From IMG/VR virus record IMGVR_UViG_2645727555_000008: DNA of 4,883 nt; one strand, given 5' to 3'. Positions within the stretch are counted from its first letter, which is position 1; each line of letters opens with the position of its first letter. The translations under genes and the position numbers were made by a program. Shown one piece after another: positions 1,657-2,188 of this stretch. The DNA comes from a virus. Lineage: Duplodnaviria; Heunggongvirae; Uroviricota; Caudoviricetes. The notes below the pieces were generated by a model that searched no databases, was not told the DNA's origin, and was given only the letters and a program-made list of their open reading frames with translations.

Positions 1657-1773
1657 TATGCTGTCAGCGGTGAAATGTATGCTATCAGCGGCTATTTTTC
1701 TGAAAAGTATGCTGTGAACGGTTAAAGATATGCTACCAGCGGTATAGTGAGATGAACGTATGCTGTGAGCGGT
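1657..1773 (+). repeat. Downstream iteron array I (5 copies, incA-like)
   Basis: TATGCTGTCAGCGGT-type repeats at 1657-1671, 1678-1692, 1708-1722, 1729-1743 and 1759-1773; spacing alternates 21 and 30 bp; first copy starts immediately after the repA stop codon. Confidence 0.85.
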
Positions 1774-1934
1774 AAATCATCTATCACCACTCAATGCTCT
1801 GTCATACCTCCCCAGTGGTTACTAACCTCGAAGAGTGCATTCCATATAGGTTTGCGCTCACTAACATTCTATTGCTATTGCGCTGATTGCTTGTAGTGAA
1901 AGGCATTTATTGCCTGCTACTCCCTGATAGAATG

Positions 1935-2188
1935 TATGCTGTCAGCGGTGTTTTATTGAGGAATTTTTGTTTGGATATGCTATCAGCGGTAATTAATGGC
2001 ATATGTCAGACCTTCGTATGCTGCCAGCGGTAATTTTGTTCTGGTTATACCCATACCGGTACACATTATTCATGCAATGTCTTAAGTATGCTGTCAGCGG
2101 TAAAAAATCGAGTAAAGTATGCTGTGAGCGGTGAGATAGACTCTCGATATGCTATCAGCGGCAGTTGATTGTGTATGCTGTCAGCGGT
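1935..2188 (+). repeat. Downstream iteron array II (7 copies)
   Basis: Repeats at 1935-1949, 1976-1990, 2017-2031, 2087-2101, 2118-2132, 2148-2162 and 2174-2188, all in the same orientation as the other arrays; spacings 41, 41, 70, 31, 30, 26 bp. Separated from array I by a 161-bp unique spacer. Confidence 0.85.

Follow-up and report, generated by a model that had tools for sequence, protein, structure and literature searches.

The DNA that follows the initiator gene repA in the viral record IMGVR_UViG_2645727555_000008 (4,883 nucleotides, the whole of which is referred to here as the window) carries two arrays of iterons separated by a long spacer, and the question raised by this locus is what the arrays do and what resides in the spacer. 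The original prediction had read the repeats as control iterons and proposed that the spacer and a shorter gap inside the second array may hold a host-factor site or a small RNA. The answer that we regard as probable is that positions 1656–2188 control the copy number of an iteron replicon of the P1/RepFIB type in an SSU5-like phage-plasmid, with a spacer that contains a separate protein-binding element of two boxes (the two-box element). The iteron arrays are an ordinary and well-understood copy-control element, and the exact replicon is already present in hundreds of public plasmid records. Nothing in the locus departs from known systems except the two-box element, which is apparently undescribed; a literature search of limited reach returned no description of it.

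To define the iterons, the copies were aligned, which gave an informative 16-bp core, RTATGCTRYSARCGGY. The 13-mer ATGCTGTCAGCGG, allowing up to three mismatches, has 19 matches in the window compared with 1.19 expected, and none of 200 dinucleotide-preserving shuffles reached this number. The same-strand (+) iterons total 17, comprising five in the origin, five in array I and seven in array II, with the first copy of array I overlapping the repA stop codon (Table 1). The array spacings given by the original prediction are exact and the single orientation of the iterons stands, but their number is 17 rather than sixteen, and the spacer and the gap are 160 and 54 bp long rather than 161 and 55 bp. 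The statement that these two intervals contain no repeats is correct for iterons. Real iterons score 17.6–27.8 bits on the iteron matrix, whereas both intervals stay below 2 bits throughout (the spacer on either strand), and Tandem Repeats Finder reports no 51-bp unit, so that decayed iterons were rejected. It does not hold for the spacer as regards its two YACTAAC boxes at 1820 and 1859. The absence of open reading frames (ORFs) is loosely correct, as three ORFs of 43–48 amino acids (1765–1896, 1887–2033 and 2003–2134) do cross the control region, but they run through the iterons and are mechanical. A conserved small ORF over the two-box element was rejected, its frame being broken by a stop codon in Cronobacter.

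The spacings of 21, 30–31 and 41 bp correspond to 2, 3 and 4 helical turns, so that the RepA molecules bound to one sub-array (array I or either triplet of array II) would all face the same side of the DNA. Array I is in helical phase, with a Rayleigh R of 0.89–0.98 at 10.2–10.4 bp per turn. Array II is phased only inside the triplets 1934/1975/2016 and 2086/2117/2147, the last copy at 2173 standing separately; the second triplet is offset from the first by approximately 3–4 bp of phase, and the array as a whole is not phased (R = 0.13–0.66 depending on the assumed helical repeat, and 0.36 at 10.4 bp per turn). Iteron phasing is known for this replicon family from P1 and F, and the phasing computed here for the P1 iterons agrees with their known phased layout. 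The 54-bp gap between the triplets has 57% identity to Salmonella and 24% to Cronobacter and is not conserved, with no iteron relic by the matrix and no conserved motif by motif scanning. It most likely merely sets the distance and phase between the triplets of array II.

The assignment of the region as a control locus is drawn from a layout that matches P1 oriR–repA–incA and RepFIB BCDD'/E–K, together with the homology of RepA, and both lines give good support to the term control iterons used in the original prediction, in the sense of the P1 incA and RepFIB E–K type. The window has a Rep_3-family initiator, an origin with DnaA sites, GATC sites and five iterons, an iteron cluster directly after repA, and approximately integral helical spacing. 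RepA matches Pfam Rep3_N with an E-value of 3.9e-9 and 37.5 bits (cut-off 22.4). By tblastn its identity is approximately 50% to the RepFIB initiators found on IncF and Klebsiella plasmids, 47.9% to SSU5/Cyrano RepA and 43.5% to P1/P7 RepA over approximately 77% of the protein. By their layout, the five origin iterons are equivalent to P1 incC and RepFIB BCDD'D''. Analogy with these replicons suggests that the arrays are most likely a handcuffing and titration locus that would lower copy number and exert incompatibility. RepA monomers would bind the 12 downstream iterons and thereby titrate the initiator, and these occupied sites would pair, or "handcuff," with the RepA complexes on the five origin iterons. 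The partners could lie on one plasmid, which would loop across repA (in cis), or on two sister plasmids (in trans), and initiation would be shut down as copy number climbs.

Division of the downstream iterons into two arrays recurs among the relatives. Those with the same iteron have 4+6 copies in Salmonella, with 174 bp start to start over the gap, 4+4 copies in Klebsiella pneumoniae pF77_2 (87 bp), 6+5 copies in Cronobacter pH322_1 (192 bp) and 4+5 copies in Klebsiella oxytoca pCAV1335-118 (76 bp). K. pneumoniae AR_0096, which also has this iteron, likewise has two arrays, and a clear intrinsic terminator fills the gap between them. The equivalent of array II in Salmonella pSAN1-1735 shows the same two-triplet design, with spacings of 41, 41, 79, 42 and 40 bp. 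Cyrano, SSU5, Yersinia pestis pMT1, Salmonella Typhi pHCM2 and the Enterobacter and Citrobacter plasmids have an unrelated iteron, AWCCACTRTAG, yet they too have two downstream arrays, the second mostly inverted, and two downstream arrays are also found in Rahnella. In classical RepFIB the downstream repeats fall into two clusters 125–145 bp apart, and P1, with a single continuous downstream array, is the exception. The occurrence of the split in same-iteron relatives, SSU5 types and classical RepFIB indicates that it was inherited and is not peculiar to the window sequence, and on this comparison of sequences the split control arrays are an inherited trait of the RepFIB/SSU5 branch.

When the control regions of five relatives were aligned, a block inside the spacer stayed constant while its surroundings diverged. 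This 55-bp block consists of two boxes joined by a linker, with YACTAAC heptamers at 1820 and 1859, exactly 39 bp apart. Box 1 is 100% identical in Salmonella and 94% identical in Cronobacter, and box 2 is 88% identical in both. For comparison, the iteron cores are 83% identical in both, flanking coding sequence is 78–80% identical in Salmonella and 68–77% in Cronobacter, and other non-coding segments are 32–70% and 24–68% identical, respectively. Outside the boxes, the spacer has only 43–68% identity to Salmonella and Cronobacter; a comparison with related replicons had been proposed as a check in the original prediction. The 39-bp spacing of the boxes is exact in ten sequence types and in Rahnella, whereas the sequence of the linker varies. 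The invariant part of the element is a pair of direct 13-mers with the consensus WGTGRYYACTAAC, each partly dyad-symmetric, and box 2 of Cyrano is a perfect palindrome, GTTAGTGATCACTAAC. Among the E. coli-type loci in IMG/VR the element is invariant apart from one substitution between the boxes, and the 10–15 bp directly after box 2 (1867–1885) are polymorphic, occurring as ATTGCTATTGCG, ATTCCCATTGCG and ATTGCCGTTGCG.

A pattern scan of IMG/VR returned 107 loci, 89 of which have the complete element; these and the earlier loci comprise 22 distinct block sequences, which were grouped into approximately ten types. The element is found in SSU5, Cyrano, pMT1, pHCM2, Enterobacter, Citrobacter, Kluyvera, Buttiauxella and Rahnella, accompanies both of the unrelated iteron types, and is present as a single copy in the 112.9-kb plasmid pECAZ155_2. 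By pattern scan it is absent from P1, RCS47, JK004, classical RepFIB, IncFIB(K) and K. oxytoca pCAV1335-118. Outside the Enterobacterales the pattern has 16 matches, approximately the number expected by chance, and no iterons lie near the six that were inspected. Its placement differs between replicons. In two Klebsiella types the element follows both arrays and adjoins the gene that we call cra-like. In the other replicons it occupies the interval between the arrays, with the repA strand carrying it in the window, Salmonella and Cronobacter types and in Rahnella, and the opposite strand in SSU5-type replicons. The distances to the flanking iterons are fixed within a replicon type, at -52/+123 for window-type and -30/+83 for SSU5-type replicons.

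The two-box element is, with moderate confidence, a putative binding site of a sequence-specific DNA-binding protein other than the iteron-binding form of RepA. Such a site is suggested by invariant boxes held apart by a linker of fixed length and free sequence, and by the lack of RNA covariation, of a promoter or terminator, and of a match to integration host factor (IHF), DnaA or Ter. In Rahnella the complementarity between the boxes is lost and both are the identical 13-mer AGTGGTTACTAAC, which points to the direct 13-mers as the invariant feature. Modulating or organising the control locus is its likely role, although this is stated with low confidence. It is tentatively possible that the element is a cis-regulatory module common to the replication-control regions of the whole SSU5/pMT1/pHCM2 family, whichever iteron is used, where a conserved host or phage-plasmid protein would bind and either couple copy control to another state, for example a maintenance/lytic switch, or organise the loop between arrays and origin.

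Several known kinds of site were considered for the spacers and rejected. The suggestion in the original prediction that the spacer may hold a functional site is supported by the 55-bp element, which is conserved far better than the DNA around it and recurs in the SSU5/pMT1/pHCM2 family, but no site for the host factors IHF, DnaA, SeqA or Tus fits it. Motif scanning of 1640–2240 found neither the IHF consensus (WATCARNNNNTTR) nor GATC, and the only DnaA-box match (TTWTNCACA) is a one-mismatch site at 2045 that is missing from the corresponding position in Salmonella, Cronobacter and Klebsiella, leaving no conserved IHF, DnaA or GATC match. Tus/Ter fork traps adjoin the R6K and R1 origins. The best match of the element to the Ter core GTTGTAACTA is GTGGTTACTA, with two mismatches, and the window contains three such matches compared with 4.6 expected; the resemblance of GTGGTTACTAACC to GTTGTAACTAACC is at chance level and disappears in other variants, those of SSU5 type diverging further. 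A dispersed phage-repressor operator is not consistent with the single copy in pECAZ155_2; elsewhere, there is no enrichment of YACTAAC or of box-like dyads. A lox-like site tied to the "Cra" neighbor was also rejected; P1 lox lies upstream of cra, and the element was not found at the P1 replicon locus, a search in which P1 lox-cra-cre was not itself scanned. The geometry of the boxes (7-bp arms around a 2-bp center, or 15-bp arms around a 21-bp center) is unlike the core of a tyrosine-recombinase site. A repA terminator in the spacer holds for the K. pneumoniae AR_0096 gap, and none is present in the spacer of the window.

The reading of a control locus with a protein-bound element in its spacer has several points to its disadvantage. 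Handcuffing and titration are carried over to the window replicon from P1, F and RepFIB. Box 2 of the window is the weakest copy, TGCGCTCACTAAC, with 9 of 13 positions matching box 1. The + strand RNA of the spacer folds better than its shuffles, with a modest z of -3.3 and only 2 of 200 shuffles as good, which leaves a small chance of an RNA role. K. oxytoca pCAV1335-118 has the same iterons and two arrays but no element, which shows that neither the split nor a replicon with these iterons depends on it. The two Klebsiella types with the element after both arrays and next to the cra-like gene suggest that it may belong to the neighboring backbone. This last possibility was weighed as an alternative in which the element stands apart from replication control, being either a cis site of the backbone or the leftward cra-like operon, or a hitch-hiking remnant around which the arrays expanded. 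The variable placement would suit such an origin, the element in the two Klebsiella types lying 40–45 bp from the cra-like stop codon, as would K. oxytoca pCAV1335-118, which has neither the cra-like gene nor the element while keeping the iterons and the split. However, box conservation of 88–100% in the midst of non-coding DNA with 24–68% identity is not expected of a remnant, the right flank in Rahnella is replaced by an insertion sequence (IS) and the element is still found between the arrays, and its distance to the flanking iterons is fixed per replicon type. We consider it quite unlikely that the element has no part in replication control.

Two further alternatives concern the molecule that would act at the element. 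The boxes could be a second kind of RepA site, bound as a negative regulator by RepA dimers or another form of the protein, similar to the inverted half-iteron operators of F, pSC101 and pPS10 or the 39-mers located among the control iterons of Vibrio cholerae chromosome II. The element lies within or beside control iterons in every case, its boxes are partly dyad-symmetric (perfectly so in box 2 of Cyrano), and ACCACT(A) is common to the SSU5-type boxes and the iteron core AWCCACTRTAG of these replicons. The window-type boxes are nevertheless dissimilar to the iteron GTATGCTGTCAGCGGT, the same boxes occur in replicons with unrelated iterons whose RepAs are approximately 48% identical, and Rahnella pairs SSU5-type iterons with the "window-type" box AGTGGTTACTAAC. 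A second RepA site is considered unlikely. Alternatively, the spacer could encode a small RNA or form a structured hairpin as RNA or DNA, for example a regulator or a single-strand initiation signal, in which ACTAACC of box 1 pairs with GGTTWGT, the left half of box 2. This inverted-repeat register is genuine, with 78.7% of cells pairing compared with 14–43% when the partner is slid, and a 15-bp inverted repeat is perfect in K. pneumoniae AR_0096, which together with the RNA fold noted above would agree with a structured molecule. On the other hand, covariation is lacking (453 of 500 shuffles score as high; consensus energy -2.97 kcal/mol), SSU5-type and Rahnella variants keep the direct 13-mers but have lost the pairing, and the boxes are not paired with each other in the minimum-energy fold predicted for the spacer. 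No Rfam match was found in 1657–2188 at E ≤ 10, promoter-like sites in 1500–2500 are no more frequent than chance predicts, and the element is not bracketed by an intrinsic terminator, the sole terminator-like call at the spacer edge (1924–1945) overlapping the first iteron of array II. A small RNA in the spacer, as advanced in the original prediction, finds no support in these searches, and an RNA or hairpin function is very unlikely. A protein-bound pair of direct 13-mers in the control locus is accordingly the interpretation that we prefer. Clinical Enterobacteriaceae commonly carry SSU5-like phage-plasmids, a group to which the Y. pestis virulence plasmid pMT1 and S. Typhi pHCM2 belong and whose members can bear resistance genes. 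A cis site kept across two unrelated iteron systems, if true, would provide a new handle on the setting of copy number or on the shift from plasmid to lytic replication.

Table 1. Coordinates of the origin, repA, the control locus and adjoining features in the window
Feature	Position	Strand	Description	Basis
DnaA-box-like pair	319–335	+	two overlapping sites, TTATTCACA and ATATCCACA (starts 319, 327); left edge of origin	motif scan
GATC (Dam) sites	341–399		six sites: 341, 355, 367, 379, 389, 396	motif scan
Origin iterons	440–541	+	five; 16-bp cores at 440, 461, 482, 503, 526; spacing 21, 21, 21, 23
repA	562–1656	+	Rep_3-family initiator, 364 amino acids	Pfam Rep3_N
Control array I	1656–1773	+	five iterons: 1656, 1677, 1707, 1728, 1758; spacing 21, 30, 21, 30
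Spacer	1774–1933		iteron-free, between arrays, 160 bp
Two-box element	1811–1865	+	box 1 CCCAGTGGTTACTAACC (1811–1827), 22-bp linker, box 2 GTTTGCGCTCACTAAC (1850–1865)	alignment, 55 bp
Control array II	1934–2188	+	seven iterons: 1934, 1975, 2016, 2086, 2117, 2147, 2173; spacing 41, 41, 70, 31, 30, 26
Gap in array II	2032–2085		between triplets, 54 bp
Hairpin	2204–2227		G+C-rich, 9 pairs, with T-rich tracts beyond it on each strand	terminator-like sites on both strands; inverted repeat I3
cra-like gene	2236–2448	-	70 amino acids; "P1 Cra" / "Cre-associated" in related phage records; phrog_804 (function unknown)

The DnaA-like pair at the left edge of the origin is also detected by motif scanning in the Cronobacter and Klebsiella relatives. 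Upstream of its repA, Cyrano has two tandem copies of the origin, each with a DnaA box, a GATC cluster and five iterons, approximately 380 bp apart (3230–3460 and 3610–3860 of locus L002), and SSU5 has a similar pair of iteron clusters (1394–1480 and 1777–1883 of locus L011). The RefSeq annotation begins RepA at the ATG at 442, within origin iteron 1, to give 404 amino acids, whereas other records begin at the equivalent of 562, to give 364; AAAGGTG precedes the ATG at 562. The position of the P1 repA promoter within the last iterons favors 562 by analogy, which makes it a more plausible start than 442. A 19-nt inverted repeat, 95% complementary, links 474–492 (origin iteron 3 and its left linker, GGTTCGCCGTATGCTGCCA) with 899–917 inside repA, and an inverted iteron-like site at 894–909 in the repA coding sequence scores 12.8 bits. 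This site is also present in pECAZ155_2 and was not found in the Klebsiella or Cronobacter repA genes.

Beyond array II, the hairpin listed in Table 1 is likely a bidirectional terminator that would serve the leftward cra-like operon as well as any read-through from repA. In the SSU5-type replicons (L002/L011/L125–L129), the first 60 bp past the repA stop codon contain a terminator-like hairpin (GGCTCACTATCCACTGTAGTGAGCC then TTTTGTTT) whose loop and stem include the second control iteron, so that the probable repA terminator would overlap a RepA binding site. The cra-like gene is the final gene of the leftward operon, abuts the control region, and is matched in 819 plasmid records by tblastn. 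This operon (2236–4677, minus strand) encodes six proteins kept across SSU5, pMT1 and pHCM2, comprising the Cra-like protein of 70 amino acids, a 111-amino acid protein with a hydrophobic N terminus, a hydrophobic protein of 59 amino acids, a 91-amino acid protein, a DUF7238 protein and an SPFH/Band-7 lipoprotein-like protein. These proteins, the products of the small genes neighboring the control region, all belong to PHROG families of unknown function.

Positions 88–4795 of the window are 98.5–99.3% identical to many plasmids of E. coli, Escherichia albertii and Shigella, mostly of approximately 100–115 kb, and the phages PhiR41_1 and CMS-2020a are 98% identical to the window. The plasmid pECAZ155_2 carries tail, capsid, portal and terminase genes in addition to a window-type replicon, which indicates that these plasmids are SSU5-like phage-plasmids, and on the evidence of these matches the window is the replicon of the approximately 110-kb SSU5-like phage-plasmids of E. 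coli. The ends of the window (1–100 and 4785–4883) are 99-nt inverted copies, 97% complementary, which lie outside the phage-plasmid, the plasmid matches ending at 88 and 4795. This end sequence of approximately 100 bp occurs in approximately 1,600 E. coli and Shigella plasmids, often in several copies per record, and in pSCU-107-1 it adjoins the IS66-like element ISEc43. Given the inverted ends, the plasmid matches stopping at 88 and 4795 and the IS66-like neighbor, the window looks like a fragment or assembly contig between two inverted IS ends. An ASCH-like gene at 82–240 is truncated by the end of the window.

Comparison with P1 shows a homologous initiator (43.5% identity) and a similar oriR, with a DnaA site, five Dam sites and five iterons (incC, spacing 21, 21, 21, 22) arranged ahead of repA in the order seen in the window, followed by incA, which, like array I, starts at the repA stop codon and has nine iterons spaced 31, 41, 40, 31, 31, 31, 30 and 31 bp apart, spacings of 30–31 and 41 bp being common to both replicons. 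By analogy, P1-like control through titration, autorepression and handcuffing is inferred for the window replicon. In contrast to the window, where 12 iterons lie in two arrays 160 bp apart, P1 incA is one array of nine without a large gap; the P1 iteron is unrelated in sequence, P1 lacks the two-box element, and the par operon that follows in P1 has no equivalent after the control locus of the window. The closest initiators, with approximately 50% identity, are those of RepFIB (P307, F and pO157; BCDD'D'' upstream and E–K downstream), which also has its downstream repeats in two clusters. The upstream iterons of RepFIB have been linked to the origin and the downstream iterons to control (PMC11983097), and in FIB replicons a resident plasmid is displaced by the downstream iteron block on its own but not by the upstream one, for which a handcuffing model was proposed (PMC11983097). 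RepFIB differs from the window in its iteron, ATAAGCTGTAG, and in having no two-box element in the gap, and in classical RepFIB most downstream repeats are inverted relative to the origin repeats, whereas all 17 of the window are direct. SSU5, pMT1 and pHCM2, which are phage-plasmids typed as IncFIB, have the backbone and gene neighborhood of the window, running from the ASCH-like gene through repA and the control iterons to the cra-like operon, as well as two downstream arrays with the two-box element between them. They differ in a RepA that is approximately 48% identical, in the unrelated iteron AWCCACTRTAG, in a second array that is mostly inverted, and in carrying the two-box element on the opposite strand.

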